A stretch of 64,000 bases of DNA from contig OY769902.1 in the NCBI GenBank assembly GCA_963669175.1, positions 1,271,240 through 1,335,239 of the forward strand, written 5' to 3'. Below the pieces are notes generated by a model, which saw nothing but the letters and a program-made list of their open reading frames with translations, was not told where the DNA came from and did no database searches. The stretch comes from a bacterium (GTDB taxonomy: Bacteria > Electryoneota > Electryoneia > Electryoneales > Electryoneaceae). The position numbers were made by a program, and so were the translations under genes. Below are positions 870-62,862 of this stretch, one piece after another (position 1 is the stretch's first letter; each line of letters starts with the position of its first letter).

Positions 870-1176
870 GGGCAATGTTGTGGCAGGTCTTGACGCGACA
901 CTCCGTTTTCGGCTTTCGCTATGTTTTCCTGAATTCACGATGATACTGAAACCGCCTCTTGCCGTGTTTTTGTCGCGTTGTGACCTGCCACCGGTATCAG
1001 CATTCTCGCCGTCGTCAGGTTACAACGTGATGCCTGATGACGATCTATCATGCGAAATAGCAGGCGTGAAGCCAGACAGATGTTTGTAATTACAGCGAGA
1101 AACAGGAAAAAGGCATCACGTCAAGACCTGACGAAACATGCTCGTCGATAGTATGCACAAATTCTTGTTAGCAGCC
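870..1176 (+). mobile_element. Family A element, copy A1 (left TIR missing)
   Basis: Aligns along its length with the reverse complement of 8139-8470. It carries box i 878-898, box ii 973-992, box iii 1013-1033, box v 1113-1133 and the right TIR ATGCACAAATTCTTGTTAGCAGCC (1153-1176). Confidence 0.85.
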
Positions 1177-1235: not shown

Positions 1236-1745
1236 TCACTTCTTCTTCAGGGCTTCCAGCGCACGTTTCAAATCTTCCGGGTCGGCGTTGTCCAGGCTGT
1301 TTTTCAGCTCTTGGCGGAGTTTGTCGGCATCATTCGGTTCCTGCCCCGGTTCGACGATCCCCAGCAGACGGCAGACAGCCGAGACATACTTGGCGGGGGT
1401 GACCGGTTTCTCGAGGTAGACGCCTGAGCCGGACATGGTCAGCTCGTCAAAATCGACCTTGCCCAGGTCATCACGAGCGTGGCCGGTGACGATCAGGATA
1501 GGGATTTTGGACGTGGCCGGGTCTTTCTTCATGGCACGGTGGAACTGGGCGCCCGAGCCTTTCGGCATCACCAGGTCCAGCGACACCAGGTCCGGGTTGA
1601 TTTCCTTGACCTTTTCCAAGGCCTGCACGCCATCCTCAGCGGTGGACACTTCGAACCCGGCATCTTCCAGCGCCATGCTCAGATAGGCACGGATGTCGGC
1701 TTCATCGTCAACTACCAGGATATGCTTTCCTGTTTTGGTATCCAT
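1236..1745 (-). CDS. Response regulator, stand-alone receiver domain with short C-terminal tail
   Basis: 169-aa ORF with receiver motifs HILVVDDEADIR, DLVSLDLVMPKGSG and ILIVTGH. It lies 19 nt downstream of the kinase gene. Confidence 0.9.
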   Translation of the reverse strand: MDTKTGKHILVVDDEADIRAYLSMALEDAGFEVSTAEDGVQALEKVKEINPDLVSLDLVMPKGSGAQFHRAMKKDPATSKIPILIVTGHARDDLGKVDFDELTMSGSGVYLEKPVTPAKYVSAVCRLLGIVEPGQEPNDADKLRQELKNSLDNADPEDLKRALEALKKK

Positions 1746-3674: not shown

Positions 3675-3702
3675 CGAAGGATTGATTCTCTTATTTTTAT
3701 TG

Positions 3703-4045
3703 CTGTTCTCGATTTTATTCCGACATAATAAAGATTGCCGGGAAAAGGGGACGGGATCCTTTTCCTCGCGCGCATATGAAACACTCTCGCCGAACTTGTG
3801 GAAAAGGAAACTGTCCCCTTTTCCGTGTACGTCCTGCCTGCTCTCAAGAAAAAGGGTACAGCCACCTTTCCCGGTCCATGCTCACAGCGGGAAGGCTTTG
3901 CCCCAAGGAAAGGAAACTGTCCCCTTTTTCCATATCCTTATCCTTTATTCCAACCATATGGTTGACCTTTCACTGATCTGGCACATGACCACATGACGGA
4001 ATAATAATGGGAATCGCTATATTTAGAATAGACCACCGCCGGGCA
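3703..4045 (+). repeat. Family C element, copy C1
   Basis: Collinear with 40789-41160 and 55521-55727. Dyad boxes at 3741-3765, 3800-3824, 3848-3871 and 3907-3931. Subterminal inverted repeat TTATTCCGACAT (5' side) / ATGACGGAATAA (3' side). Ends in the CCGCCGG hairpin foot. Confidence 0.85.
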
Positions 4046-4046
4046 A

Positions 4047-4184
4047 CCGCCTTCGCAAGCTACGGCGTTTTCAAGCCGGCGGGGCCAAAGAACCGCCTTC
4101 GCAAGCTATGGCGTTTTCAAGCCGGCGGGGCCAAAGAACCGCCTTCGCAAGCTACGGCGTTTTCAAGCCGGCGGGGCCAAAGAA
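4047..4184. repeat. Tandem repeat, 46 bp x 3
   Basis: The unit CCGCCTTCGCAAGCTA(C/T)GGCGTTTTCAAGCCGGCGGGGCCAAAGAA occurs at 4047-4092, 4093-4138 and 4139-4184. It expands the simple hairpin CCGCCGG-ACAAG-CCGGCGG seen at the same position of copy C2 (41140-41158). Confidence 0.95.
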
Positions 4185-4697: not shown

Positions 4698-6326
4698 TTA
4701 CATCATTTCCCAGTCAAGTATTGGTTCTTCACAATCGACCATGGCGTTGACAATCAGCTCCACCAGTCCGCCGTAATAAATGCCGCTTTTTTCCTTTGCG
4801 CCGAAGTAGTCCAGCATGTCACGGATCGAGCCCTTGCAGTTGGAGCAGGGAGCGCAAACATACTTCGGAGCGTCCGGGTCGTTCAGGTCCGTATCCTGGA
4901 ACGCTTCAAGGATCTGGCGGAATTTGCGACGGCTGCTGATCTGGTTACGCCAGTCATTGAAATTGAACGGCGCCATGATCGCAAAGCCGGAACCGCCACC
5001 GCAGCAGTAGTTACGGACACCGTGCGGGGTCATCTCACGGAACTGCGGGCAGAGATAGCGCAGGATTTCACGTTGCGGCTCCACAATACCCAGGTTGCGA
5101 ACGATATTGCAGGGATCATGCAAGGTGACCGGGAAATCATTCTTGCTCGGGTCAAACTTGATCTTACCACTGAATACGATATCCCGCAGCAGGGTCAGGA
5201 TGCTTTCACGGTTGGGCAGGTCCACCCCGACACGGTCGGCGATGACGCCCATGGTCTTGGTTTCGTGGCCGCATTCGCCCATGACAATTTTCTTGACTCC
5301 AAGCTTCTTGGCAGAGTCGAAATGACGATGCGCTACACGAGCGAGCTGGACATCATCGTAAAACAGGCCATAATTGACACCATCATATGCGACCAGGTCG
5401 CTGCTCATGGTCCAGCTTATCCCGGCCTTGTTGAAAATTACTGCGGTGGAACCGTGGTTCTCCGGCCAGGCCAGGAACTCACCGGCGTTTTCGATCAGCA
5501 GGATATCTGCGCCCTGCACATCCCAGGGGGTGACGACTTCGAAACCGACACGCTCGGTCATGTCTTCATCGATAAACTCGATGTTGTCCTTGACCACGAT
5601 CTGGTTCATGCCGGTTGAGGAACCAACTTCCATTTGCTGAATGGTGCCCTTGTCATGCAGCTCACGTGGCGCCCAACCCAGCTCCTGGCTGAACAGCTTG
5701 CGCAGGTCGTGAGTGATCAGACCGTTGTCCACGCCAATCGGGCAGGCCTGGGCACAACGGCGGCAGAGGGTGCAACGATAGCTCAGCTCGTACAACCGTA
5801 CGATCAGGTTATAGTTCAGCTCGATGTCGCCGTGCTGGAAACGGTTGAACAGGCCCGGCTTGACATACTTGAAATAGAGACGACGCAATACTTCGGCGCG
5901 ATAGGTGGGACGATAGACCTCATTACGGCCGCTCTCGATATAAACCTGGCAGTCATCGACACAGGTCTGGCAACGAGCGCAGTGTTCCATGGACAGGGTC
6001 AACGGTTCCAGGAAGGTCCAGTTGTTTTCCGGGGTGAACAGTTTTTTCAACCCGGCCAAGAATTTGTTGACGATTTCCTGTTCCTGCTCCTTTGTCTCCG
6101 GTTTTTTGATTCCGGCGGCAAGGGTATCATCCAGGGAAGTGTCGAATGTTTCCCTGTGCGAATCTTTTAAAGGCGCAAACGGCGGAATGTTCTCCGGTTT
6201 GTCATAAGGTGGTGGCAGCGGAGGCAGATCTTCGGCGCAAACATGGGTCAACTGCTCGACATCCTTGCTGATATCTTTTACACTTGCCGGTTCAAGGCGT
6301 CCGCAGGTGCAGTTCGGGCATGTCAT
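4698..6326 (-). CDS. HdrD/DsrK-like iron-sulfur oxidoreductase (two [4Fe-4S] motifs plus CCG-type Cys motifs)
   Basis: 542-aa ORF with CARCQTCVDDC and CTLCRRCAQACP ferredoxin motifs. C-terminal HDPCN, CCGGGSG and CAPCSNCKG motifs as in HdrD/DsrK/GlpC-type proteins. Its start lies 2 nt after the stop of the membrane subunit gene. Confidence 0.8.
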   Translation of the reverse strand: MTCPNCTCGRLEPASVKDISKDVEQLTHVCAEDLPPLPPPYDKPENIPPFAPLKDSHRETFDTSLDDTLAAGIKKPETKEQEQEIVNKFLAGLKKLFTPENNWTFLEPLTLSMEHCARCQTCVDDCQVYIESGRNEVYRPTYRAEVLRRLYFKYVKPGLFNRFQHGDIELNYNLIVRLYELSYRCTLCRRCAQACPIGVDNGLITHDLRKLFSQELGWAPRELHDKGTIQQMEVGSSTGMNQIVVKDNIEFIDEDMTERVGFEVVTPWDVQGADILLIENAGEFLAWPENHGSTAVIFNKAGISWTMSSDLVAYDGVNYGLFYDDVQLARVAHRHFDSAKKLGVKKIVMGECGHETKTMGVIADRVGVDLPNRESILTLLRDIVFSGKIKFDPSKNDFPVTLHDPCNIVRNLGIVEPQREILRYLCPQFREMTPHGVRNYCCGGGSGFAIMAPFNFNDWRNQISSRRKFRQILEAFQDTDLNDPDAPKYVCAPCSNCKGSIRDMLDYFGAKEKSGIYYGGLVELIVNAMVDCEEPILDWEMM

Positions 6327-8065: not shown

Positions 8066-8566
8066 GACAGGATAATAGGGTACAAGGATGCTGATGAAGA
8101 ATTTACAGGACGAAAAGGATGCTAAGGATTATAAGGATGGCTGCTCATAAGAATTTGTGCATATTATCGACGAGCACGTTTCGTCAGGTCTTGACGTGAT
8201 GCCTTTTTCTTGTTCTTCTCCGCAATTTCAGACACCTGTCCGACTTCACCGCTGCTATTTCGCATGATAGATCGTCGTCAGGCATCACGTTGTGACCTGA
8301 CGACAGCGAGAGTGCTGATACCGGTGGCAGGTCACAACGCGACAATAACAGGACGAGAGGTGGTTTCAGTATCATGTGCATTCAGAAATACATTGCGAAA
8401 GCCGAAAACGGAATGTCGCGTCAAGACCTGCCACAACTCTGCCCGGATGCACAAATTCGTGTGAGGAACCAGTTTTTTATCCTTGATATCCTTGTTATCC
8501 TTTGCATCCTGTACATGGAACCAAGAAGCTCCCCTTGCCATCCTTCTATCCTATCATCCTGTGAGT
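8066..8566. repeat. Family D element D2 (double arms) with family A copy nested in its centre
   Basis: Forward AGGAT arrays lie at 8066-8098 and 8100-8138. The reverse arrays lie at 8474-8515 and 8533-8566. A2 occupies 8139-8470. Confidence 0.8.
8139..8470 (-). mobile_element. Family A element, copy A2 (full length)
   Basis: TIRs are GGCTGCTCATAAGAATTTGTGCAT (8139-8162) and ATGCACAAATTCGTGTGAGGAACC (8447-8470). All internal boxes are intact. No target duplication is seen. Confidence 0.9.
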
Positions 8567-10013: not shown

Positions 10014-10155
10014 AATTCACAGGATTCTCAAGAAGAATTCACAGGATGAACAGGATTTGAAGGATATCACAGGATAAAAAACGTGTTAAAGGAAAACACG
10101 TAAAAACCATTCTGTTTATCCTTGGCGTCCTTTTTTATCCTTCCCATCCTGTACA
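10014..10155. repeat. Family D element D3
   Basis: The forward arm (10014-10078) has GAATTCACAGGAT twice plus phased AGGAT. The central hairpin is ACGTGTT-AAAGGAA-AACACGT. The reverse arm is 10111-10155. Confidence 0.8.
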
Positions 10156-10172
10156 TGCTTGTTGAGGTAAAC

Positions 10173-13348: not shown

Positions 13349-13365
13349 CGAGCCGGGATTCTGTT

Positions 13366-13558
13366 GAATTTACAGGATATGCAGGATACTAAGGATGAAA
13401 AGGATCAAAACCGTACGGCCGTATGAGTCAAATAAACTGGAACTCTGTAAAGAGCGAAATCCGGGACCAACCACAGAAAGCATGTCTTTTTTTTTCGTTT
13501 ATCACTAAAAATGGTTTCATCCTGTTTATCCTTACCATCCTTTGCATCCTGTAAATAC
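13366..13558. repeat. Family D element D4 (uninterrupted reference copy)
   Basis: The forward arm is GAATTTACAGGATATGCAGGATACTAAGGATGAAAAGGAT (13366-13410). The reverse arm is 13515-13558. The ~100-nt centre is homologous to the D5 centre. Confidence 0.85.
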
Positions 13559-13634
13559 TGTCGTATCCCTTAAATACTGTTCTTTTCTTTGCGCCTTTGC
13601 GTCTTTGCGTGAAACCAGATTTAGTGCGACGATA

Positions 13635-16557: not shown

Positions 16558-16613
16558 AGTGAAAAAGGTAAAGAAGTGAAAAAGGTAAAGAAGGGAAAAA
16601 AGTAAAGAAAGTA
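16558..16613 (+). repeat. Family G purine-rich box (reiterated)
   Basis: AGTGAAAAAGGTAAAGAAGTGAAAAAGGTAAAGAAGGGAAAAAAGTAAAGAAAGTAG. Confidence 0.8.
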
Positions 16614-16639
16614 GCCCGTCCATGCCCGGCCGGGTATCT
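16611..16639 (+). repeat. Family I hairpin
   Basis: GTAGCCCGTCCATGCCCGGCCGGGTATCT; compare 10173-10202. Confidence 0.7.
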
Positions 16640-16869
16640 GTTGAATTTACAGGATATGCAGGATACGAAGGATGAAAAGGATAAAAGCCGAAAGGCATGA
16701 GGGCTTCACGAATGAGATTCTGCCTGATTTTAAAATCCGGGACTAACCACAAATAGCATGTCCTTTATTTCGTTTATCACTAACCCGAATATTTCACCAA
16801 TGCAATTTCAAATTTGGTATTTGATGGAATGGCCAGTACAAGAACCACGGCAGTGGTTCTCTGTATTAG

Positions 16870-16908
16870 CCCACCGTCCAGCGCCGTCTGTTTGGCGCTC
16901 ACGGTGGG
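16870..16908 (-). repeat. Family E hairpin, copy E1
   Basis: CCCACCGTCCAGCGCCGTCTGTTTGGCGCTCACGGTGGG. The loop core is the reverse complement of GCCAAACAGACGGC. Confidence 0.75.
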
Positions 16909-17023
16909 AATAGGATGTACGCTTTGCCAACCCCGGCAGCGGGTTGCCTGAATATTTCCACTGTATACTTTTGATATTTATCAGGTTACTCCTTCCGGAG
17001 TAAATATATGGTGCGCATTATCT

Positions 17024-19103: not shown

Positions 19104-21941
19104 ATGTCACCCAACGAACCAGACAAAATTCGCATCCTTGGCGCACGCGAGCATAACCTTGCCAATATTGATGTAACCCTGCCACGCAACCGTTTGTGTG
19201 TGGTTACCGGACTGAGTGGAAGCGGGAAGTCCAGCCTGGCGTTTGATACGCTATATGCTGAAGGCCAAAGGCGTTACGTGGAGTCATTATCCGCGTATGC
19301 ACGCCAGTTCCTTGGCCTGATGGAAAAACCGGACGTGGACTTCATTGAAGGTTTGTCTCCCGCAATCTCCATCGAACAGAAGGCAACGCATCGCAATCCA
19401 CGGTCTACGGTTGCCACGGTTACCGAGATTTACGATTACTTGCGTCTGCTTTTTGCCCGGATTGGCGTTGTTCATTGTCCCAGTTGCGGCAAGCAGATCA
19501 GCAGGCAGACCGTACAGCAGATCACCGACGCCATTCTTGACTATCCTGAAGGCACACGTTTGCAGATACTCGCCCCGGTAGTGCGTGAACGCAAGGGCGA
19601 ATACCGGAAGATGTTCAAGGAGATCGAGAGGGATGGGTTTGTGCGTGTCCGGGTTGATGGAGAGGTTTACCCGGTCACCGAAACACCCACCCTGGACAAG
19701 AAGAAGAAGCATTCTGTTGATATCGTAGTTGACCGTCTGGTGGTAAAAGATGGTATCCTTACCCGTTTGACCGACAGCATTGAGACTGCGCTGGGCAAGG
19801 CGGAAGGTCTGGTTACGATGCTCACTGCAGACGGGGAAGAGAGGTTATTCAGCGAGCATTTTGCCTGTCATGATTGCGGTATATCACTGGAAGAACCGGC
19901 GCCACGAAATTTCTCTTTCAACAGCCCGTTTGGCGCCTGCCCGGTTTGTGACGGGCTGGGATTCCGTCTTGAAATCGATCCACGGCGAATCGTACCCGAT
20001 GAAAGCAAAACGATCGTAGGCGGGGCTATTGAACCGTTTGGCCTGGCGCGTGAAAGCTGGACTTTACGTATGCTGGAGAAGGTCGCCGAACATCACAAGT
20101 TCAAGCTGACCACTCCCTGGCACAAACTCCCGGAAGAACATCAGAAAACCATCCTGTACGGTTCGAAGGATAAAATCCATTTTGTCTGGGAACGATCCAA
20201 CGACAAGTACGAAGGCACGTGGGACCATTGGGGAAAATGGGAAGGTGTGATTACCAACCTGCAACGCCGTTACAAGCAGACCAATTCCCAGGGGATTCGT
20301 GACTGGATCGAGGGATTCATGGGGCAGGTACCCTGTGAGGTGTGCCATGGTCAACGCTTGCGTCCGGAAGCGTTGGCGGTGCGTGTACAGGGACTGAATA
20401 TTGCGGAAGTCAGCGCTAAATCCATCGGGCAATCTATCGAGTATTTTAACTCGCTTCAACTTTCTGAGCGTGATGCGACCATCGCCGAGCAGATCATGAA
20501 AGAGCTGAAAGCCCGGCTAGGTTTCCTGATGAATGTGGGCCTGAATTATCTGACACTGGATCGTAGTGCGGGTAGCCTGTCCGGTGGTGAAGCGCAGCGC
20601 ATCCGCCTGGCGACCCAGATCGGCAGTCAGCTTGTCGGTGTGATGTACATCCTCGATGAACCTTCCATCGGGCTGCATCAACGGGATAACGCCCGTTTGA
20701 TTACCACGCTGGAAAAGTTGCGTGACCTGGGCAACTCGGTGATCGTCGTCGAGCATGACCGTGAAACGATCGAACGTGCCGATTATGTAGTTGACCTTGG
20801 GCCAGGCGCGGGACGGCATGGCGGCAAAGTCGTCGCAGCGGGGTCACCCGATGAGATTCGCGATGATCCCAACAGCGTCACGGGAAATTTTCTGTCCGGG
20901 CGGGAAGTCATCCCGGTGCCCGAGAAACGGCGTACCCCTTCGAAACGGTGGATCACGATCAAGGGCGCACGTGGGCACAACCTGAAGAACATCGATGTCA
21001 AGTTCCCGCTCGGCTTGTTTACCGTAGTAACCGGCGTCTCAGGCTCAGGAAAAAGCACGCTGGTCAACGAGACACTTTACCCTGCGCTGGCGCGTACGCT
21101 CAATGGATCTCGTGAGGTGCCATTATCCCATAACGATATCAAAGGGCTGCACTATATCGACAAGGTTGTCGATATTGATCAGTCCCCGATTGGACGCACC
21201 CCACGTTCCAATCCGGCGACCTACACCGGGCTGTTCACGCTGATACGTGATCTGTATGCCCAGCTTCCTGATGCAAAAGCACGAGGGTACAAGTCCGGGC
21301 GCTTCAGCTTCAATGTCAAGGGCGGACGTTGTGAAGCCTGCCAGGGGGCGGGTATCATCAAGATAGAAATGCACTTCCTGCCGGATGTATATGTGACCTG
21401 TGAAACCTGCAAGGGTAAACGCTACAATCGTGAAACCCTGGAAGTGAAATACCGTGGCCGTTCCATCTCGGACGTTTTGAACATGACCGTGGAAGAAGGG
21501 TACGAGTTCTTCGAAAACCACCCGCCACTGGCACGGAAACTGAAGGTATTGAACGAAGTCGGCCTTGGTTATATCAAGCTGGGCCAGCAGGCGACAACTC
21601 TCTCCGGCGGTGAAGCGCAGCGGGTGAAATTGTCCACAGAACTTTCCAAGGTCAGCACCGGGAAGACGATCTACATTCTTGACGAGCCCACAACCGGGCT
21701 GCATTTCCAGGATATCCGGTTGTTGCTGCAAGTGCTGCATCAACTGGTGGAGAAGGGCAATACGGTGATCGTTATCGAGCACAACCTGGATGTGATCAAG
21801 ACGGCTGACTGGATCATCGATCTCGGTCCGGAAGGCGGCGATAACGGCGGGACTATTCTCGCAACCGGATCACCAGAGGATGTCATCGAGGTTCCGCAAA
21901 GTTATACCGGACAGTTCCTGAAAGAGGAGCTGAACCGGTAG
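19104..21941 (+). CDS. uvrA: Excinuclease ABC subunit A
   Basis: 945-aa ORF with two ABC modules ([25 protein letters not shown]), LSGGEAQR signatures and Cys zinc modules. Confidence 0.98.
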
Positions 21942-21950
21942 CCTTCTGCT

Positions 21951-22117
21951 GAATTTACAGGATGATCAGGATGTTAAGGATAATAAGGATAAAAACATAA
22001 AACTATATAATTATTTTTACAATACTAACAACGAATAGACTCATTAAGCATTTATGGGGTTTTCATGTTAGGTTGTTATCCTGAATATCCTTGTTATCCT
22101 TTGTATCCTGTAAATTC
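21951..22117. repeat. Family D element D6
   Basis: The forward arm is GAATTTACAGGATGATCAGGATGTTAAGGATAATAAGGATAAAAAC. The reverse arm is 22074-22117 and ends ..ATCCTGTAAATTC. The centre is AT-rich and 80 nt long. The element starts 10 nt after the uvrA stop. Confidence 0.85.
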
Positions 22118-22155
22118 GATATGATTTCATTTGATTCATGCTATTTTGAATGGGT

Positions 22156-22450
22156 AAGCAGGCGAAAAATGGGACTGTTACCTTTTCATGCTTTTGAATG
22201 CAGAACAATCACATTAGTATTGAAGAAAAGGTGACTGTACCAATTTTTTACCTGCTCTGTAAGATGGTTCAGGACTGGAAAATGCTGGGACAGCCACCTT
22301 TTCGAAACATATCTTCCCAGCGATCAATGATTTTGCGTACAAATGAAACATGGTCAACAATATCTGGCATATTCGCAGGCGAAAAGAGTGGCAGTCCCCA
22401 TTTTCCCCCGGCAATTCCCCCCTTCCCATCGAATTGGACCCTTACATCCA
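22156..22450 (+). repeat. Family B element, copy B1
   Basis: Collinear with 34393-34685 and with the reverse complement of 62611-62862. Dyad boxes at 22164-22187, 22225-22249, 22277-22304 and 22381-22405. Confidence 0.85.
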
Positions 22451-25863: not shown

Positions 25864-26075
25864 GATGAACTCCGGCTCGTAGATGTTCAAACGACACTGG
25901 ATACCCTCTTTGTACATCCAGTGCGAATACACTAATATAAATAATATAAGGTCATCAGGAGATTATTGCTCAGGGACACTCTCAAAAAGCAGGAAATGGC
26001 TCGAAAAAATGAAGTAACTGTCGTGGAGGATTCCGGAAGCGAAGCAGATACATCTGCCAAAAGGAAGCAAAATGT

Positions 26076-26407
26076 GGCTGTTCACAAGAATTTGTGCATA
26101 TTATCGACGAGCACGTTTTGTCAGGTCTTGACGTGATGCCTTTTCTTGTTCTTCTCCGTAATTTCAGATATCTGTCCGACTTCACACCTGCTATTTCGCA
26201 TGATAGATCGTCATCAGGCGTCACGTTGTGACCTGACGACAGCGAGAGTGCTGATACCGGTGGCAGGTCACAACGCGACAATAACAGGACGAGAGGCGGT
26301 TTCAGTATCATCGTGCATTCAGGAATACATAGCGAAAGCTGAAAACGTAAAGTCGCGTCAAGAACTGCCACAACATTGCCCTGATGCACAAATTTTTGTG
26401 AGGAATT
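26076..26407 (-). mobile_element. Family A element, copy A3 (full length)
   Basis: TIRs are GGCTGTTCACAAGAATTTGTGCAT and ATGCACAAATTTTTGTGAGGAATT. The flanks are CAAAATGT / CAAAATAA (6 of 8 identical). Confidence 0.9.
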
Positions 26408-26411
26408 CAAA

Positions 26412-26446
26412 ATAAAAAACCCGCACCTCTAAAAAGAGATGCGGGT
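26412..26446 (-). terminator. Rho-independent terminator downstream of tRNA-Ser
   Basis: The minus strand has a 12-bp stem ACCCGCATCTCT / AGAGGTGCGGGT (one mismatch) followed by TTTTTTAT. Confidence 0.7.
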
Positions 26447-26478: not shown

Positions 26479-26566
26479 CGGAGAGGGTGGGATTCGAACC
26501 CACGGTGGGCTTGTGACCCACACTCACTTAGCAGGCGAGCACCTTCGGCCTCTCGGTCACCTCTCC
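26479..26566 (-). tRNA. tRNA-Ser (anticodon GCU)
   Basis: My own fold of the minus strand follows. Acceptor GGAGAGG/CCTCTCC; D stem ACC/GGT; anticodon stem CTCGC/GTGAG with loop CT-GCT-AA. There is a long variable arm TGTGGGTCACAAGCCCACC, a T arm GTGGG-TTCGAAT-CCCAC and discriminator G. Length 88 nt; CCA is not fully encoded. Confidence 0.9.
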
Positions 26567-26865: not shown

Positions 26866-27345
26866 ATGTCGCTGTCATTCGGCACAAATTCAGAAAGGGA
26901 AGTGAGCTATTCTCTTTGCAGGAGTTTTCAGGGAGATATCGATCCGGGAAAGATTGCCGACAGTTTCCTTGCCGGGAATCAAACCCCGGATGAGTTTATC
27001 ACCAGCCTGGTCAACCTGATGCCGTGCAAATTGGATCGTGCAAACGGGTGCCGAACTCACCTGGTCTCAACTCTGGACATCGCCAATATCATCATTGATG
27101 CATTGAAAGAGCGGATTTCCGGATCTGGCAAAGAAATGTTGATCGACTGGATGCACAGCAGGGGACTGGAAATGCATATTATTGCCCGAAACCGGAAACT
27201 GGATAGAATCAACCCGCTGAAGTATCTGCTTGAAGACAGTGATTTTTTTCTGCATCCCCATGAAACTTACCTCGAACTTCTGGAAGATGTCCGGCAACTT
27301 GCAAAAGCCTGGCATATGATCCTGGCCTCCACGAATGTTCATTGA
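26866..27345 (+). CDS. Hypothetical protein
   Basis: 159-aa ORF in an otherwise ORF-poor region with coding-like composition. No motif recognised. Confidence 0.4.
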   Translation: MSLSFGTNSEREVSYSLCRSFQGDIDPGKIADSFLAGNQTPDEFITSLVNLMPCKLDRANGCRTHLVSTLDIANIIIDALKERISGSGKEMLIDWMHSRGLEMHIIARNRKLDRINPLKYLLEDSDFFLHPHETYLELLEDVRQLAKAWHMILASTNVH

Positions 27346-34392: not shown

Positions 34393-34685
34393 AAGCAGGC
34401 GAAAAACGGGACTGTTACCTTTTCATGTTTCAAGTGTAGAAATGACATAGCAGTAAAGACGAAAAGGTAACTGTACCAGGTTTTCTGCCTGCTGCTACAG
34501 GCTGTTCCGTGCAGGAAAATGCCGGGACAGCCACCTTTTCGCATCATGGTTTTCAGAAATCAATAACTTTGCGTTTAAATAATAAATGGTTAACAGTTTA
34601 CAACATGTTTTGCATGCGAAAAGCGTGGCAGTCCCCATTTTCCATCGGAAATTTCCATTGTCTATCGAATTTGCTCTACACATCC
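34393..34685 (+). repeat. Family B element, copy B2
   Basis: Dyad boxes at 34401-34424, 34461-34485, 34514-34540 and 34618-34643. It starts 21 nt after the permease stop. Confidence 0.85.
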
Positions 34686-38776: not shown

Positions 38777-38870
38777 GGATTCACAGGATGAACAGGATGG
38801 TGTAAGGATGCCAGAGATAAATTGCCGGATTCACAGGATGAACAGGATAGGAAAGGATGCCAAGGATATA
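38777..38870 (+). repeat. Family D, two tandem forward arms (D7)
   Basis: GGATTCACAGGATGAACAGGAT..AAGGATGCC occurs at 38777-38815 and again at 38827-38870. No reverse arm lies nearby. Confidence 0.8.
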
Positions 38871-40656: not shown

Positions 40657-40788
40657 GGTGAACCTCTCTCTCTTTGGAGTTGGAAAGTTATAAAGTTACA
40701 AAGTTGAAAAGTTATTAAAAGAAAAACTGGGACTGATCTTTCGCGGTCTGTTATTCATTGATCAAAGGAAATAGAGAATAAAGACAAT

Positions 40789-41160
40789 CTGCTCTCGATT
40801 CAATTCCGTCATAATGAAGATTGCCGGGAAAAGGGGACGGGATCCTTTTCCTCGTGCTAATGCAGCATATTTCTGAACTATTCATGGAAAAGGAAACTGT
40901 CCCCTTTTCCGCGTAATTCCTGCTTGCTCCCAAGAAAAAAGGTACAGCCACCTTTCCCGGTCCATGCTCACAGCGGGAAGGCTTTACCCCAGGGAAAGGA
41001 GGCAGTCCCCTTTTTCCATATTCTTTCTCCCCATATAGTAGATCTTTCACTGATATAGAACATAACCATATGGCAGATTAATATTGGGAATCGCTACACA
41101 ACTGAAGGTGAAGCTCTTCAAATAAATTAAAATAGACCACCGCCGGACAAGCCGGCGGGG
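40789..41160 (+). repeat. Family C element, copy C2
   Basis: Dyad boxes at 40827-40851, 40886-40910, 40934-40957 and 40993-41017. It ends in the hairpin CCGCCGG-ACAAG-CCGGCGG. Confidence 0.85.
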
Positions 41161-41184
41161 CCAACAGGGAATCAATCTTCTTCG

Positions 41185-41299
41185 CAGAAATCGTAGAATA
41201 CTACAATCAGAAATCGTAGAATACTACAATCAGAAATCGTAGAATACTACAATCAGAAATCATAGAATACTACAATCAGAAATCGTAGAACACTACTAT
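41185..41299. repeat. Tandem repeat, 23 bp x 5
   Basis: The unit CAGAAATCGTAGAATACTACAAT occurs at 41185, 41208, 41231, 41254 and 41277, with degenerate continuation to about 41320. Confidence 0.95.
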
Positions 41300-41344
41300 C
41301 ACAAATCGTTGCATATCACTGTTATAAACTGTAGTCCTTCATAA

Positions 41345-41735
41345 AATGCAGTTGTATCCTGAATATCCTTTTTAGGCTGCTCACAAGAATTTTTGCATAT
41401 TATCGACGAGCACGTTTCGTCAGGTCTTGACATGATGCCTTTTCTTGTTCTTCTCCGTAATTTCAGACATCTGTCCGACTTCACACCTGCTATTTCACAT
41501 GATAGATCATCATCAGGCATCATGTTATGTCCTGACGGCAGTGAGAGTACCGATACCGGTGGCAGGTCACAACGCGACAATAACAGGGTGAGAGGTGGTT
41601 TCAGAATCATCGTGCATTCAGGAAAACATAGCGAAAGCCGAAAACGGAAAGTCGCGTCAAGACCTGCCACAACTTTGCCCGGATGCACAAATTCTTGTGA
41701 GGAACCCCTTTTTATCCTGTTCATCCTTTAAATTC
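41345..41735. repeat. Family D reverse arm (D9) split by family A copy A4
   Basis: With A4 and one duplication removed, the sequence reads ATCCTGAATATCCTTTTTATCCTGTTCATCCTTTAAATTC. This is a phased ATCCT array. Confidence 0.75.
41375..41706 (-). mobile_element. Family A element, copy A4 (full length, degenerating)
   Basis: TIRs are GGCTGCTCACAAGAATTTTTGCAT and ATGCACAAATTCTTGTGAGGAACC. An exact 8-bp direct repeat CCTTTTTA lies at 41367-41374 and 41707-41714. Boxes iii and v carry transitions. Confidence 0.9.
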
Positions 41736-41747
41736 AGCTTGTGAGTC

Positions 41748-43259
41748 CTATTCTTCGCTCGGAGCTTCGTCCCTGTCACGGAGCAACGGGAACAGGAGTA
41801 CGTCACGGATCGAGCTGCGGTCGGTCATCAGCATGACCAAACGATCCACACCCATCCCCAGGCCGGCCGTGGGGGGCATACCCAACTCCAGCACGCCAAG
41901 GAAATCCTCGTCGAGCTGCATGGCTTCATCATCGCCCGCCATACGTGCTTTCGCCTGTGCTTCGAACCGTTCGCGCTGATCCTGAGGATCGGTCAACTCG
42001 CTGAAACTGTTGGCCAGTTCCATCCCTCCGGCAAAAGCTTCAAAGCGTTCCACCAGCCGTTTGTCATCACGGTGCCGTTTCGCCAACGGACTCAACTCAA
42101 CCGGGTAATCGATCATGAAGGTCGCGCGTTTGAAGGTAGGCTCGACCAGTTCCCCGGCCAGTTCATCCAACGCCTTGCCTAAAGCGTACTTGGGATCAAT
42201 CATGATGTTATTCTTTTTGGCGACCTCACGCACCTTCTCCAGGTCAGCGCCCAGCAGATCCTCACCGGTTATTTCCTTGAGGGCGTCGAAGAAGTTCACT
42301 CGCGGCCAGGGCGGAGTGTAATCCAGCACCTCGCCGTTAAACGGCGCCTGGTAGCTGCCGTGAATCTTCATCACCGTATCCGCGACGATCTTTTCGACCA
42401 GCTCCATGTGATACGTATAATCCTTGAAGGCGATGTAACATTCCATCATGGTGAACTCGGGATTGTGCGTCCGGTCCACGCCTTCATTACGGAAATCCTT
42501 GGAGATTTCGTAGACACGATCCAGTCCGCCCACGATCAGCCGCTTCAGGTACAGCTCGTCTGCGATGCGCAGGTACAGCTTCTTTTTGAGCTGGTTGTGG
42601 TGGGTTTCGAACGGACGCGCGGTGCCGCCACCGTACAGGGGCTGGAGAACGGGAGTTTCTACTTCAAGGAAACCCTGCTCGTCCAGGATGCGGCGCATGT
42701 TCGAGATGATCATCGCGCGTGTACGGAAAGAGTCACGCACTTCCGGGTTGACGATGAGGTCCAGCGCACGGTTACGGTAGCGTTCATCGGGATCGGAAAA
42801 CTCATGGTGACGTTCCCCGGTTTCCGCATCTTCCTTTACTACGGGTAGCGGACGGATATTCTTGGCCAGCAGGGTGTATTCCTGAACATGCAGAGATTTC
42901 TCGCCGGTTTTGGTGACCATAACCTTCCCCACCAGTCCCAGCCAGTCACCCAGGTCTACCGAGCTTTTGTACAGGGCATAGGGCTCTTCGCCGACATCGT
43001 CACGCTTGATGTAAAACTGGACTCTTCCGGTATCGTCCAGGAAATGTGCGAAGGAGGCTTTGCCCATGACACGCTTGGCGACAACACGTCCCGCCATGCG
43101 AACCACAATCTCTTTTTCCTGGAGTTCGTCGAACTCTTCCAGCATCTGTGCGACAGTGTGGGTACGATCAAATTCGTACGGATATGGCTCAACGCCGGCC
43201 TCGACAAACTTCTGTAACTTGGCCTTGCGTGTTTCGATCAACTGCTGTAGGGTTTCCAT
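41748..43259 (-). CDS. lysS: Lysine--tRNA ligase (class II)
   Basis: The track ORF runs to 43349; ATG 43259 (METLQQLIETRKAKL) matches the usual LysS N-terminus. Class II motifs are FRNEG and GLGMGVDRLVML. Confidence 0.95.
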   Translation of the reverse strand: METLQQLIETRKAKLQKFVEAGVEPYPYEFDRTHTVAQMLEEFDELQEKEIVVRMAGRVVAKRVMGKASFAHFLDDTGRVQFYIKRDDVGEEPYALYKSSVDLGDWLGLVGKVMVTKTGEKSLHVQEYTLLAKNIRPLPVVKEDAETGERHHEFSDPDERYRNRALDLIVNPEVRDSFRTRAMIISNMRRILDEQGFLEVETPVLQPLYGGGTARPFETHHNQLKKKLYLRIADELYLKRLIVGGLDRVYEISKDFRNEGVDRTHNPEFTMMECYIAFKDYTYHMELVEKIVADTVMKIHGSYQAPFNGEVLDYTPPWPRVNFFDALKEITGEDLLGADLEKVREVAKKNNIMIDPKYALGKALDELAGELVEPTFKRATFMIDYPVELSPLAKRHRDDKRLVERFEAFAGGMELANSFSELTDPQDQRERFEAQAKARMAGDDEAMQLDEDFLGVLELGMPPTAGLGMGVDRLVMLMTDRSSIRDVLLFPLLRDRDEAPSEE

Positions 43260-44392
43260 CCGTGTCCCTCGTAAATCCGCGGCACTCGTGTCGTCCAGCC
43301 GCATAATATCTCGTATGCAATGGTCTGAGCGTGGCCTGCAAGCTCCCACGCTCCAATTCGTTCTTCTTCCTGTCGTCCGATCAGGACTGCTTCCGCGCCC
43401 ACCGAATGCTGGTCTTCACCCAGCCAGACCATGAGCTGATCCATGCTGATATTCCCGACGACCGGGTATCGTTTCCCCCCGATCAGCACATCGGCACGAT
43501 TGGATAAAATTCGCGGGTATCCATCACCGTAGCCTACCGGAAGCGTTGCCAGCCAGCCGTCACGCGGTGCGCTCCAACTATGCATGTAGCCGACGCCCAT
43601 GCCCTTACGGATACCTTTGAAGAATACTACTTCCGTCTGTACGCTCAGCGCGGGCTTCAAATCCCATTTCCCGTCCAGGTGTGGCCCGGGACCGTAGCCA
43701 TATAAGGTAAGTCCCGGTCTTACCATGTCATAGGTGACATTTTTCAGGTTATACAGTGAAGAGCTGTTCGCAAGATGCGCCAGCGGCACTTCCAGCCCTT
43801 GTCGCTTCAGGTTGTCCAGAACTTCCTGGAACATTTCATGTTGACGCATGGCCAGCTCGACATCCGGCCCCTGGGCACGTACAAAATGGCTGAAAATGCC
43901 GACAAGGTCCATGTTTGGCATCTTTGCCACACCCAACGCGTACGCTACGGCGTTCTGCACACGTACACCGATACGGTTCATGCCGGTGTCCACCTTCAGA
44001 TGCACACGTGCAATACGGTTCATCCGTTGCGCTTCTTCAGAAATCTGCTGTGCTTTATACAAGCTGGAAGCCGTCATGTCCAGGTGATAATCAAGGAAGT
44101 GCTTCACCTGGTAACCAACCAGTCCGCCGAGGACAAGGATCGGCGCTTCGATCCCGGCCTGACGCAGTTTGATCCCCTCTTCCAGGAAAGCGACGCCGAA
44201 AAAGTCGACACCCAGGTCCGCGAATTTTCGGGCTGCGGGCACCAACCCGTGTCCGTAAGCGTCTGCCTTCATAATCGCCATAATCTTGGCGTTGCCCGTG
44301 TGCTTACGCACTTCCGCAACATTGTGCGTCAGGGCATCAAGGTCAATCCGCATGTGTGTCGGACGTAAACGATAGGTTATACTCATGTTCAT
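43238..44392 (-). CDS. alr: Alanine racemase
   Basis: 384-aa ORF with the PLP-lysine motif AIMKADAYGHG and the C-terminal VPRIY motif. Confidence 0.93.
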   Translation of the reverse strand: MNMSITYRLRPTHMRIDLDALTHNVAEVRKHTGNAKIMAIMKADAYGHGLVPAARKFADLGVDFFGVAFLEEGIKLRQAGIEAPILVLGGLVGYQVKHFLDYHLDMTASSLYKAQQISEEAQRMNRIARVHLKVDTGMNRIGVRVQNAVAYALGVAKMPNMDLVGIFSHFVRAQGPDVELAMRQHEMFQEVLDNLKRQGLEVPLAHLANSSSLYNLKNVTYDMVRPGLTLYGYGPGPHLDGKWDLKPALSVQTEVVFFKGIRKGMGVGYMHSWSAPRDGWLATLPVGYGDGYPRILSNRADVLIGGKRYPVVGNISMDQLMVWLGEDQHSVGAEAVLIGRQEEERIGAWELAGHAQTIAYEILCGWTTRVPRIYEGHGWKPYSS

Positions 44393-44541
44393 CCCGGGTT
44401 ACGGCTGCGTTCGAAGGGGACCCACCCGGTCAAACCAGCCCGTTCGGATGATAATGTATCCAGAGTCCATTCGCAAAAGCTGAAAGCAAACAGGCTCGGC
44501 TCGCAGACTGCTCCGGAAAATGGGAAAAGCCGCTAAAATCC

Positions 44542-44796
44542 AAGTTGTGGCAGGTCTTGACGCGGCCGTTATGAATTCTCCCTGAGAGGTTTTCCATGGC
44601 AACCAAAGATGCCAATCAAATCACGAATCGCGACTACCGGTCGCGTTGTGACCTGCCACCAGCCGCTGATCCCTTTTACCGTCAGGTCACAACGTGATGC
44701 AGAGCGAATATCCATGGAGATAGCAGGCAAAATACTTGTCATACACCTGAGGATGCTGAAAGATCTCGAAATCTGCATCACGTCAAGACCTGACGG
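44542..44796 (+). repeat. Family A diverged core (A5), no TIRs
   Basis: It retains box i 44542-44563, box ii 44641-44660, box iii 44680-44700, ATAGCAGGC 44720-44728 and box v 44775-44795. The inter-box sequence is unrelated to A1-A4. Confidence 0.8.
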
Positions 44797-44803
44797 AACT
44801 TTA

Positions 44804-44844
44804 AAAAACGGGATAGACCACTTCGGGTCAGTCCCTGTTTTTCG
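44804..44844. repeat. Expanded dyad box hairpin
   Basis: AAAAAACGGGATAGACCACTTCGGGTCAGTCCCTGTTTTTC; compare 763-801. Confidence 0.75.
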
Positions 44845-44848
44845 TCAA

Positions 44849-44877
44849 TAAAAAACCCTCGACCAGTGGCCGAGGGT
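44849..44877 (-). terminator. Rho-independent terminator
   Basis: On the minus strand, CCCTCG-GCCACTGGT-CGAGGG is followed by TTTTTTATT, 22 nt after the stop at 44899. Confidence 0.7.
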
Positions 44878-44898
44878 ATGGATAGCAACTGGGAAAAT

Positions 44899-45366
44899 CT
44901 ATTGTCTGGCGTCTTCAGGCGCCGGATTGTTTTTCTGTTCACGGATCAGTTTACCCAACCCGGCAATATCATCATAGAGTTTTTCAATAGCGGTCATGGG
45001 ATCATTCAGGTAATCTTTACGGCTCACCACATTGTCCGCGGGTTCACGTGACCCGGTTTTCCAGTGATAATAGCTGAAGGGACGTAACTGGGCCGCTTTG
45101 ATCACCGACTGACGTGTCCAGGCCTCGCCAAGCTGGGCAACACCTTCATCCATCGCACGTTCAAACAGCAAATCGGATACGATGAAGAAACCTTCCACTC
45201 GGGAACGCAAACTCGTTTCCTGATCTACTCGATCTATTGGCATTACTTTCTTCAAGTCTTCAAGGAAATCCTGTGGATCCTGTGACCCGTTTATAAAATC
45301 TTGTGCTGCAGCACGCAGTTTGTCAATCTGTTCCTGTGTCGCAAAGTAAAGTTTCTGGTCCGACAT
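44899..45366 (-). CDS. Hypothetical protein
   Basis: The track ORF runs to 45435; ATG 45366 (MSDQKLYF..) is preceded by AGGAGGAG. No family recognised. Confidence 0.6.
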   Translation of the reverse strand: MSDQKLYFATQEQIDKLRAAAQDFINGSQDPQDFLEDLKKVMPIDRVDQETSLRSRVEGFFIVSDLLFERAMDEGVAQLGEAWTRQSVIKAAQLRPFSYYHWKTGSREPADNVVSRKDYLNDPMTAIEKLYDDIAGLGKLIREQKNNPAPEDARQ

Positions 45367-45743
45367 AACTCCTCCTATTCGTATCCGGCCTGATGCCGGC
45401 GCTGCAAATGCTTCCGCCTCCTCACAAGAAGACACTTGCCGAATGAGTCAACTTGCACCTACCGGTCAAATAAGTCCTAAGGTTGATTCAATTCTATAAA
45501 GCCAGATAGTGAAGGAAATTACACAAATCAGTGGTTTTATGAGGGTTGCAATATCTCAGAATGTATGTAAGTCAAGTTAAGCAATTGTTTTTACTTGCTC
45601 TAACTCGAGTGAATAGGGCATTCAACCATCAATACTTGTTTTTCTATATCAAATATACACCACCAACAGGAGAAAACCAATCACGACTAAGGCAATACTG
45701 CGAAACTTGAGAGTAAAAAGTGCGTAATTGTTGACCGTCCACT

Positions 45744-55489: not shown

Positions 55490-55520
55490 AGAAGTCACAT
55501 ATTTCTGACTTAAAGTTTAG

Positions 55521-55727
55521 CTGTTCTCGATTTTATTCCGACATAATGGAGATTGCCGGGAAAAGGGGACGGGATCCTTTTCCTTGCGCTTATAACAGAA
55601 CATTCCTGAAGTATTCATGGAAAAGGAAACTGTCCCCTTTTTCCATATCCTTTCTTTCAACCATAGAAAGGATCTTTCACTGATATAGCACATGACCCTA
55701 TGACGGATTAATAATGGGATTCTCTAT
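55521..55727 (+). repeat. Family C element, copy C3 (internally deleted)
   Basis: Dyad boxes at 55559-55583 and 55619-55644. Both ends are collinear with C1 and C2. Confidence 0.85.
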
Positions 55728-55813
55728 ACTTCGGTGAAAATGTTGAAAATTCTGTTTGGTCGACTCGACGCCAATACAAATATTGTTACTCGCGATCAAA
55801 GACAGTTCAGTCC

Positions 55814-62612: not shown

Positions 62613-62862
62613 GATGGAAAATTGAGACTGCCACTCTTTTCGCTTGTGAGTATGTTGTGGATTGTGAACCATGTTGAATTTCAGACTCTGGGTATTGCTT
62701 ACTGGAAAACATGTTACGAAAAGGTGGCTGTCCCGGCATTTTCCTGCGTGGAACTATCCTGTATTGCAAGCGAAAAATCTGGTACAGTTACCTTTTCATC
62801 AAGACTGGTATGATAGTCCTGTAGTTGAAAACATGAAAAGGTAACAGTCCCATTTTTCGGAA
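62611..62862 (-). repeat. Family B element, copy B3 (inverted)
   Basis: Dyad boxes at 62616-62641, 62718-62744, 62772-62797 and 62835-62858, in reversed order relative to B1 and B2. Confidence 0.85.

Follow-up and report, generated by a model that had tools for sequence, protein, structure and literature searches.

Family A, an interspersed repeat with five copies in the 64,000-nt stretch of bacterial chromosome analyzed here (positions 1,271,240 to 1,335,239 of contig OY769902.1, assembly GCA_963669175.1; hereafter the window), appears to be a new genome-specific family of miniature inverted-repeat transposable elements (MITEs). It seems to package a newly recognized, covariation-supported twin-hairpin module that resembles repetitive extragenic palindromic (REP) sequences. 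A first-pass annotation of this DNA had described the repeat as an interspersed element bounded by terminal inverted repeats (TIRs), with four internal boxes that allow two mutually exclusive sets of helices. The observation is real and the element is more structured than first noted, but it is not an RNA switch. Our preferred interpretation, to which we assign a probability of about 0.45, is that a MITE of the DDE type packages a palindromic doublet, similar to those of REPs and of bacterial interspersed mosaic elements (BIMEs), which is used as a recognition structure by a trans-acting enzyme.

Copies, termini and hairpin units of family A

MAFFT alignments and a repeat finder, applied to the window, both recovered the five copies previously reported, i.e., four copies of ~332 bp (A1 to A4, with a pairwise identity of 87-92%) and one diverged core (A5). 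The copies, and the hairpin units located in them with a covariance model, are the following:

870-1176, plus strand: A1; left TIR absent, right TIR at 1153-1176; similarity begins at CTGGGCAATG (868-877); units at 877-994 (plus) and 1009-1137 (minus)
8139-8470, minus strand: A2; full 332-bp copy in the middle of an AGGAT-array palindrome
8139-8162, plus strand: right-end TIR of A2 (element sense), 24 bp, GGCTGCTCATAAGAATTTGTGCAT
8447-8470, minus strand: left-end TIR of A2 (element sense), 24 bp, GGTTCCTCACACGAATTTGTGCAT
8321-8437, minus strand: unit E1 of A2 (boxes i and ii), covariance model score 104.6 bits
8178-8306, plus strand: unit E2 of A2 (boxes v and iii; an E1-type unit on the opposite strand), covariance model score 102.9 bits
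26076-26407, minus strand: A3; full copy; units at 26257-26374 (minus) and 26115-26242 (plus)
41375-41706, minus strand: A4; full copy, the most decayed; units at 41556-41673 (minus) and 41414-41541 (plus)
44542-44801, plus strand: A5; doublet without TIRs; units at 44544-44662 (plus) and 44676-44799 (minus)

The 24-bp TIRs were confirmed. A search of the window for the 19-nt TIR core, CTCACAAGAATTTGTGCAT, with up to one mismatch gave 7 matches where 0 were expected; six of them are the paired TIRs of A2, A3 and A4, and the seventh is the right TIR of A1. Direct reading of the flanks of A4 revealed a perfect 8-bp target duplication (8/8; CCTTTTTA at 41367-41374 and 41707-41714), and the 8-bp flanks of A3 matched at 6 of 8 positions (CAAAATGT at 26068-26075 and CAAAATAA at 26408-26415). 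A1 is flanked by a ~45-bp direct duplication (825-851 and 1183-1209) of the intrinsic terminator of a response-regulator gene (1236-1745, minus strand), far longer than the 8-bp duplications seen at other copies. Being bounded by TIRs, non-coding, present in multiple copies and, at A4 and A3, associated with target duplications, family A is a MITE, one of the two readings that had been proposed, and nothing in Rfam, plasmid or viral searches linked it to a named family.

The window is ordinary chromosome with housekeeping genes, and its alr homologues point to a Calditrichota-like organism. At least six further copies of family A were detected as spurious open reading frames (ORFs; P0121, P0177, P0179, P0180, P0181 and P0183), all of them on the same 5,447,365-bp contig and none elsewhere among ~15 billion proteins, so that the total is at least 11 copies (five in the window and six protein-level traces). 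Family A is genome-specific, and its full copies are, or once were, mobile as a transposon with TIRs and target duplications. ORFs that run from TIR to TIR in A3 (142 aa) and A4 (141 aa) could be taken to mean that the element encodes a small protein. However, 1-nt indels interrupt the frame in A2, and in A1 it stops early. Boxes ii and iii are spaced 1 nt differently in A5 than in A1, which puts them in different relative frames in A5, and database searches retrieved no relatives besides further copies in this genome. Protein coding was rejected on these grounds, and we give it next to no chance.

The interior is as unusually organized as the first-pass annotation had claimed. Read in the sense of A1, the four boxes are:

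Box i: GTGGCAGGTC-TTG-ACGCGAC
Box ii: GTCGCGT-TGT-GACCTGCCAC
Box iii: CGTCAGGTC-ACA-ACGTGATGC
Box v: GCATCACGT-CAA-GACCTGACG

A motif common to the boxes, CAGGTCNNNNCGYG, has 16 exact matches in the window, all within the five copies; with up to one mismatch 30 matches were found (7.3 expected), and 19 of the 20 boxes were recovered. Boxes i and ii form the first hairpin and boxes iii and v the second, each consisting of a lower stem of 9-10 bp, a 3×3 irregularity, an upper stem of at least 7 bp and an apical region of 60-85 nt. The doublet is closed by a short GTT/AAC helix, and in full copies the TIRs pair outside that helix. The four boxes are two inverted copies of one covarying hairpin unit of 79-129 nt, whose consensus on its own strand is 5′-GTT-N4-CAGKTC-TTG-(A)CG...CG(T)-TGT-GAMCTG-N4′. 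Read on the opposite strand, the second hairpin is 5′-GTT-N4-CAGGTC-TTG-ACG...CGT-TGT-GACCTG-N4′, and therefore has the layout of the first; unit E1 of A2, for instance, reads GTT-GTGG-CAGGTC-TTG-ACGCGAC ... GTCGCGT-TGT-GACCTG-CCAC on the minus strand.

The irregularity of the unit, TTG opposite TGT, corresponds to T·T, T·G and G·T and is invariant. On either DNA strand a 'T-type' hairpin (T·T, T·G, G·T) comes first and an 'A-type' hairpin (A·A, C·A, A·C) second. Taken each on its own strand, the units can all be aligned in register, and the covariance model scored them at 46-105 bits on that strand and at 13-20 bits on the opposite one. No further hidden unit was found with the full covariance model in the window or in any of the loci fetched. 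The predicted folds are very stable (z = -4.4 to -6.3).

The hairpins within and beyond the window

Among the TIR-bearing copies (n = 4), substitutions were ~3-fold fewer in the boxes (8/344) than in the rest of the interior (52/793; Fisher p = 0.002). With these copies A5 shares only four exact blocks of 18-23 nt, which are the four boxes, and the flanking GTT...AAC: identity was 85 of 86 positions in the boxes (21-23 nt) and 83 of 206 (~40%, noise level) elsewhere. Since the boxes evolve more slowly in the TIR-bearing copies and are all that is shared with A5, they are the constrained part of the element, independently of the TIRs. The stems of A5 extend past the boxes by sequence that is different yet complementary, and A5 is not a decayed copy.

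A search with a two-box hairpin pattern retrieved the doublet, without the 24-bp TIRs, on two JGI metagenome contigs, L010 and L011 (Ga0307380_10311505 and Ga0180438_10217748). In both cases it is intergenic and near the contig end, with spacers unrelated to those of the window, and it lies just 3′ of genes, as do four of the five window copies. In the lower stem of the first hairpin, where the window has GTGG/CCAC, L010 has CCGG/CCGG and L011 has CCGA/TCGG, i.e., the changes are compensatory. The second hairpin is CGTCAGGTC-ACAA-CGTGATGC...GCATCACG-TCAA-GACCTGACG in the window and CTGCCAGTTC-ACA-CGCCGC...GCGGCG-CAA-GAACTGGCAG in L010, and in A4 its upper stem carries one compensatory change, G-C to A-T.

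The units of the window, L010 and L011, each on its own strand, were combined in a 14-unit alignment. In it 96.6% of the cells are paired and 11 of the 17 pairs have changed on both sides, with a covariation score of 0.527 compared with 0.179 in shuffled alignments, none of which (0/500) was as good. When the partner strand was slid as a control, pairing fell to 26-50% of the cells. GTT, TTG and TGT are invariant across the 14 units, and the apical region is free to vary. A covariance model built from the window units only found the second unit of L010 (34.6 bits, E = 8e-7), which lay outside the search pattern that had retrieved that contig. By these measures the hairpins are under selection. 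Because the doublet occurs without TIRs in A5, L010 and L011, these comparisons also indicate that it is independent of the MITE, and older than it.

These data bear on the simplest alternative, in which family A is a plain MITE, the boxes being double-stranded sites for the transposase of a parent insertion sequence (IS) and the hairpins being irrelevant. The TIRs, the target duplications, the conservation of the boxes among copies and the occurrence of a 12-nt core four times in alternating orientation, like multi-site transposon ends, would all fit. However, the arms that flank the core differ between hairpins and between lineages and nevertheless stay complementary, which double-stranded binding sites would not need, and the module occurs where there are no TIRs. 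Moreover, box patterns led to no autonomous element, whether within the window, among GTDB representative genomes or among JGI metagenomes: a three-box pattern gave only 3 chance matches, in GC-rich coding sequence, among the GTDB representatives and no match among the JGI metagenomes. Searches of plasmids and viral contigs with the element and with the TIR, the only collections outside the window in which the TIR itself was searched for, yielded nothing useful, and the matches of box i alone in viral contigs were dismissed as chance matches inside a phage gene. We consider the plain MITE improbable.

The two pairing schemes of the first-pass annotation (i:ii with iii:v, and i:v with ii:iii) can both be drawn. 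Where TIRs are present, the alternative fold lies no more than 2-9 kcal/mol above the hairpin fold, and it is the better of the two in A3; these near-equal energies do not come from complementary spacers. In A5 the alternative fold is 13-14 kcal/mol worse (as RNA). The hairpin set, i:ii with iii:v, shows extensive compensatory change across A5, L010 and L011, whereas the set i:v with ii:iii involves only positions that are invariant in the window and are uninformative for or against that fold. The paired core of the alternative helices is identical at 8 of 9 positions in L010 and at 5 of 9 in L011, and a G-to-T change in the second hairpin of L010 is compensated within the hairpin and breaks both alternative helices. 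Since the alternative helices decay and this change is compensated within the hairpin, it is the hairpins, not a switch, that selection has kept. With no covariation for i:v and ii:iii and with decay in both metagenomic homologues, the mutually exclusive helix sets did not stand as a designed feature, and a switch between them was rejected as a selected feature. The presence of two inverted copies of one unit with a shared 12-nt core accounts both for the alternative helices and for the fact that the loops of one hairpin are complementary to those of the other. RNA-motif searches should take note: two-fold DNA symmetry alone can yield alternative helices and inter-hairpin complementarity.

RNA, DNA and the IS110 thread

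The first-pass annotation had hinted at RNA-level structure because some substitutions seemed to remain pairable as G-U only in the A1 sense. This did not survive a fuller count: A1 and A5 have one sense wobble each, and A3 (two) and A4 (one) have wobbles only on the other strand. Over the 14 units there are 7 G·T and 5 A·C, with no strand bias, and predicted stability gave no strand preference either. No convincing promoter was found near A5 (44300-45000), and Rfam, searched with gathering and with permissive thresholds, gave no match to the element in the window, in L010 or in L011. Relatives with alr-lysS synteny lack the module in that intergenic region, and A5 was accordingly rejected as a conserved syntenic leader or small RNA (sRNA). 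In one of these relatives, of the Calditrichota (L012, alr 81% identical), a ~185-nt intergenic tandem repeat at 16560-16945 gave an unrelated chance match to the search pattern.

Two copies of a conserved hairpin, GGGAYAGACCACnnnGGGTCAGTCCC, followed by a T-run were noticed at 769-794 and 44810-44835 (with the T-run reaching 44842 after A5). The first precedes A1 by 75 nt and the second follows A5 by 14 nt, in each case on a side that has no TIR, and they differ from each other by a C-G versus a T·G pair.

A mobile structured non-coding RNA, whether expressed from its own gene or acting in cis within an mRNA, for instance as a 3′-end stabilizer or a processing site, would account for part of these observations. 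In such a scheme A5 would be the resident copy and the MITE would have spread the others; both hairpins would be needed, and loop-loop contacts would be possible. The strong covariation in both stems, the very stable predicted folds, the position of most copies directly downstream of genes, the same-strand hairpin and T-run that follow A5 (44810-44842) and the exact complementarity of the two hairpins' loops in all three lineages are all consistent with it. On the other hand, the second hairpin repeats the first in reverse complement, down to the GTT and the loop triplets, for which an RNA made from one strand offers no reason, and neither L010 nor L011 has kept the helices between the hairpins. 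The balance of G·U and A·C on either strand, the lack of a convincing promoter around A5 and of an Rfam relative, and the absence of the module from the syntenic region of relatives also speak against an RNA, and we regard this alternative as unlikely, though worth keeping in view. On account of the strand symmetry of the doublet, a role at the DNA level, in single-stranded (ss) DNA or as cruciforms, is favored over RNA with moderate confidence.

In one of the spurious ORFs of the same genome, P0121, family A sequence follows directly on 66 residues from the N-terminus of a DEDD transposase of the IS110 family (PF01548, E = 1e-4). Its family A part starts L-G-N-V-V, which corresponds to CTGGGCAATG, the boundary where the left TIR of A1 is lost. 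That two independent copies, A1 and P0121, appear to be cut at the inner edge of the TIR suggests that the event was site-specific. Insertion next to REP hairpins has been published for IS110 members, one of which needs a stem-loop in the target DNA (bioRxiv 10.64898/2026.03.19.712850); ISPpu9, of the IS110 family, mobilizes a MITE-like sRNA module, of which some copies joined to truncated tnp fragments are known (PMC12288879).

In view of this junction and of these precedents, the doublet or the left-edge site could be a landing pad or a hitch-hiker of an IS110 bridge-RNA recombinase, which would also explain the copies without TIRs. However, there is a single junction, known at the protein level and not as DNA, and P0171, from the same genome, has the IS110 N-terminus of P0121 fused at codon 38 to an unrelated repeat family, which resembles nested junk more than a specific association. 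IS110 sequence was absent near the five window copies, and IS110 N-termini had no tblastn match in the window. The non-coding flanks of an IS110 relative on another contig (L009) have no similar module, and homology to a bridge RNA was dismissed for that reason; a further candidate, L008, is a solitary tnp fragment. The loops of the doublet are 3×3 nt, invariant and complementary to each other rather than to the flanks, unlike those of IS110 bridge or seek RNAs, and in work on IS621 the guide loops of bridge RNAs are reportedly far longer than 3 nt. Finally, the full copies A4 and, in part, A3 carry target duplications of the DDE type. A link of this kind between the doublet and IS110 is very unlikely in our judgment.

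A related proposal is that the doublet is an undescribed structure-gated recombination site, namely a strand-symmetric pair of ssDNA hairpins, possibly for an IS110 bridge-RNA enzyme. It would explain the recurrent TIR-less boundary, between CT and GGGCAATG, in A1 and P0121, and it would make the doublet a natural 'landing pad' for an IS110 enzyme or a hitch-hiker on one; we hold it to be improbable as well. In the 3′ non-coding flank of the L009 element, which is of the IS110 family and frameshifted, there is a long near-perfect hairpin (5163-5236) that may be a target or an end structure.

Other repeats were recorded in the window. A second intergenic family consists of inverted AGGAT arrays with a period of 9 bp (GAATTTACAGGATnnnnAGGATnnnnAGGAT...) that form palindromes of ~170 bp; A2 lies at the center of one of them and A4 at the edge of another. 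The third family has its own copy in P0171, after codon 38 of the IS110 N-terminus, and two of its window copies are followed by tandem arrays. A 45-bp inverted repeat (227-271 and 694-738, 93% complementary) bounds a ~510-bp segment that encloses a second, 51-bp inverted repeat (368-418 and 493-543), possibly another fold-back element. The positions of the repeats are:

276-310, 8099-8138 with 8471-8516, 10021-10156, 13352-13565, 16629-16696, 21937-22124, 38779-38868 and 41707-41749: AGGAT arrays
3693-4022, 40779-41099 and 55511-55729: third family, ~330 bp
4045-4184 and 41162-41345: tandem arrays after two third-family copies (46 nt, three times; 23 nt, about eight times)
22163-22419, 34428-34656 and 62616-62859: fourth dispersed family, ~250 bp, 75-87% identical, one copy inverted

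With regard to neighboring genes, A3 lies 71 nt from a tRNA gene (26479-26566). Two small ORFs, one ~100 nt from A5 (44899-45435, minus strand) and one ~460 nt from A3 (26866-27345, plus strand), are 34% similar over 62 aa and match no Pfam or NCBIfam entry. They were considered as a source of the partner protein and set aside, being weakly similar, devoid of known domains and without paralogues near the other copies.

Comparison with known systems and a candidate mechanism

Like the bacterial MITEs Correia/NEMIS, ERIC and RUP, family A is short (332 bp, MITEs being smaller than ~600 bp), non-coding and multi-copy, has TIRs and, at A4 and partly at A3, a target duplication, occupies AT-rich intergenic sites and can fold back. 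It differs from them in that its interior is an independently conserved two-hairpin module rather than the remnant of a deleted IS, and no parent IS is known.

The closer parallel to the interior is the REP family. In REP doublets that form hairpins (REPINs), two conserved inverted REPs enclose a spacer whose sequence and length vary, and polarity comes from a central TT/AA asymmetry (PMC3337134). Family A likewise has inverted conserved boxes with variable, hairpin-keeping spacers, a central asymmetry that can provide polarity (TTG/ACA, compared with TT/AA in REPs), a conserved 5′ flank (GTT, compared with GTAG) and doublets in alternating orientation that are extragenic and usually 3′ of genes. 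It differs from REPs, REPINs and BIMEs in that the two boxes of one hairpin differ in their central triplet, which creates the permanent 3×3 irregularity, and in that the doublet rides in a transposon with TIRs and target duplications, which REPINs do not. REPs typically number in the hundreds as extragenic copies and flank a single-copy gene for a REP-associated tyrosine transposase (RAYT, a Y1 enzyme); family A is known from at least 11 copies, and no RAYT was present among the 38 window ORFs scanned with Pfam. By analogy, family A is probably best called REP-like.

The remaining parallels are more partial. MITEPpu9, the ssr9 module on ISPpu9 (PMC12288879), is also a small non-autonomous module that is either linked to or apart from an IS110-family gene. 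Copies of the IS ends (A′/B′ boxes) together with an AG core delimit it, and a defined sRNA gene lies within, whereas the link of family A is one protein-level junction to the 5′ part of tnp, and full copies of family A have TIRs of their own and, at A4 and partly at A3, 8-bp duplications. The ends of IS200/IS605 elements resemble the doublet in being imperfect subterminal hairpins that are read on one strand as single-stranded DNA, with specificity residing in elements of 3-4 nt; unlike the doublet, they are on the same strand and in direct orientation, without TIRs or target duplication, and no tnpA or tnpB lies near family A. Integron attC sites, which act as folded ssDNA, share with it the precedence of structure over sequence and a common layout, in which an unpaired spacer separates the lower from the upper stem and the terminal structure varies. 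The attC signature is RYYYAAC on the 5′ side and GTTRRRY on the 3′ side, both inside the stem; in family A the GTT is 5′ of and outside the hairpin, with AAC 3′ of the doublet, so that the polarity is opposite. Family A also has no cassettes and no integrase nearby among the window ORFs, and its units occur in inverted pairs.

Several observations weigh against a MITE that carries a REP-like recognition structure. A2 has no target duplication (2/8; flanks ATAAGGAT and AGTTTTTT), and A1 has no left TIR. As the first-pass annotation had stated for transposases, no transposase, recombinase, HUH or Y1 gene was detected among the 38 scanned ORFs. Only three sequence lineages are known (the window genome, L010 and L011), and the second unit of L011 is partly degenerate and was missed by the window-only covariance model. 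At 79-129 nt, the units are 3-5 times longer than REPs (20-40 nt), and their boxes are not palindromes (nothing beyond GTC..GAC), which makes the relationship with REPs one of analogy, not membership. Finally, the location 3′ of genes, the stable folds and the terminator-like hairpin right after A5 would suit an RNA role equally; REP-type DNA elements are likewise extragenic, 3′ of genes and stably folded.

With these reservations, the proposed mechanism is as follows. Family A would be a non-autonomous cut-and-paste transposon with 24-bp TIRs and 8-bp target duplications, whose cargo would be the palindromic doublet of two inverted imperfect hairpin units. Either strand could fold into the hairpins, when single-stranded or in a cruciform, and an enzyme encoded elsewhere and acting in trans would recognize them by both sequence and structure. 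The features recognized would be the 5′ GTT, the CAGKTC core, the permanent TTG/TGT irregularity, the covarying arms and the free apical region. This would parallel REPs, REPINs and BIMEs with RAYT tyrosine transposases, and IS200/IS605 ends with TnpA. The outer TIRs would let a second transposase, of the DDE type, amplify the doublet in this genome. The most likely role of the doublet would be that of a recognition structure in single-stranded DNA. The data show the anatomy of the element, its signatures of mobility, the covariation of the hairpins, their conservation outside this genome and the lack of coding; a DNA rather than an RNA as acting form, and the kind of partner enzyme, are what we infer.

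Family A thus adds a new, structurally well-supported repeat family in a little-studied phylum (Calditrichota-like bacteria). If the proposed mechanism is correct, a MITE with TIRs and target duplications would have taken up a repeat of another kind, the REP-like hairpin doublet, and multiplied it, and such nesting is rarely documented. The invariant GTT and TTG/TGT in covarying stems would then provide a specific ligand with which to find the partner enzyme, whether RAYT-like, IS110-like or other.

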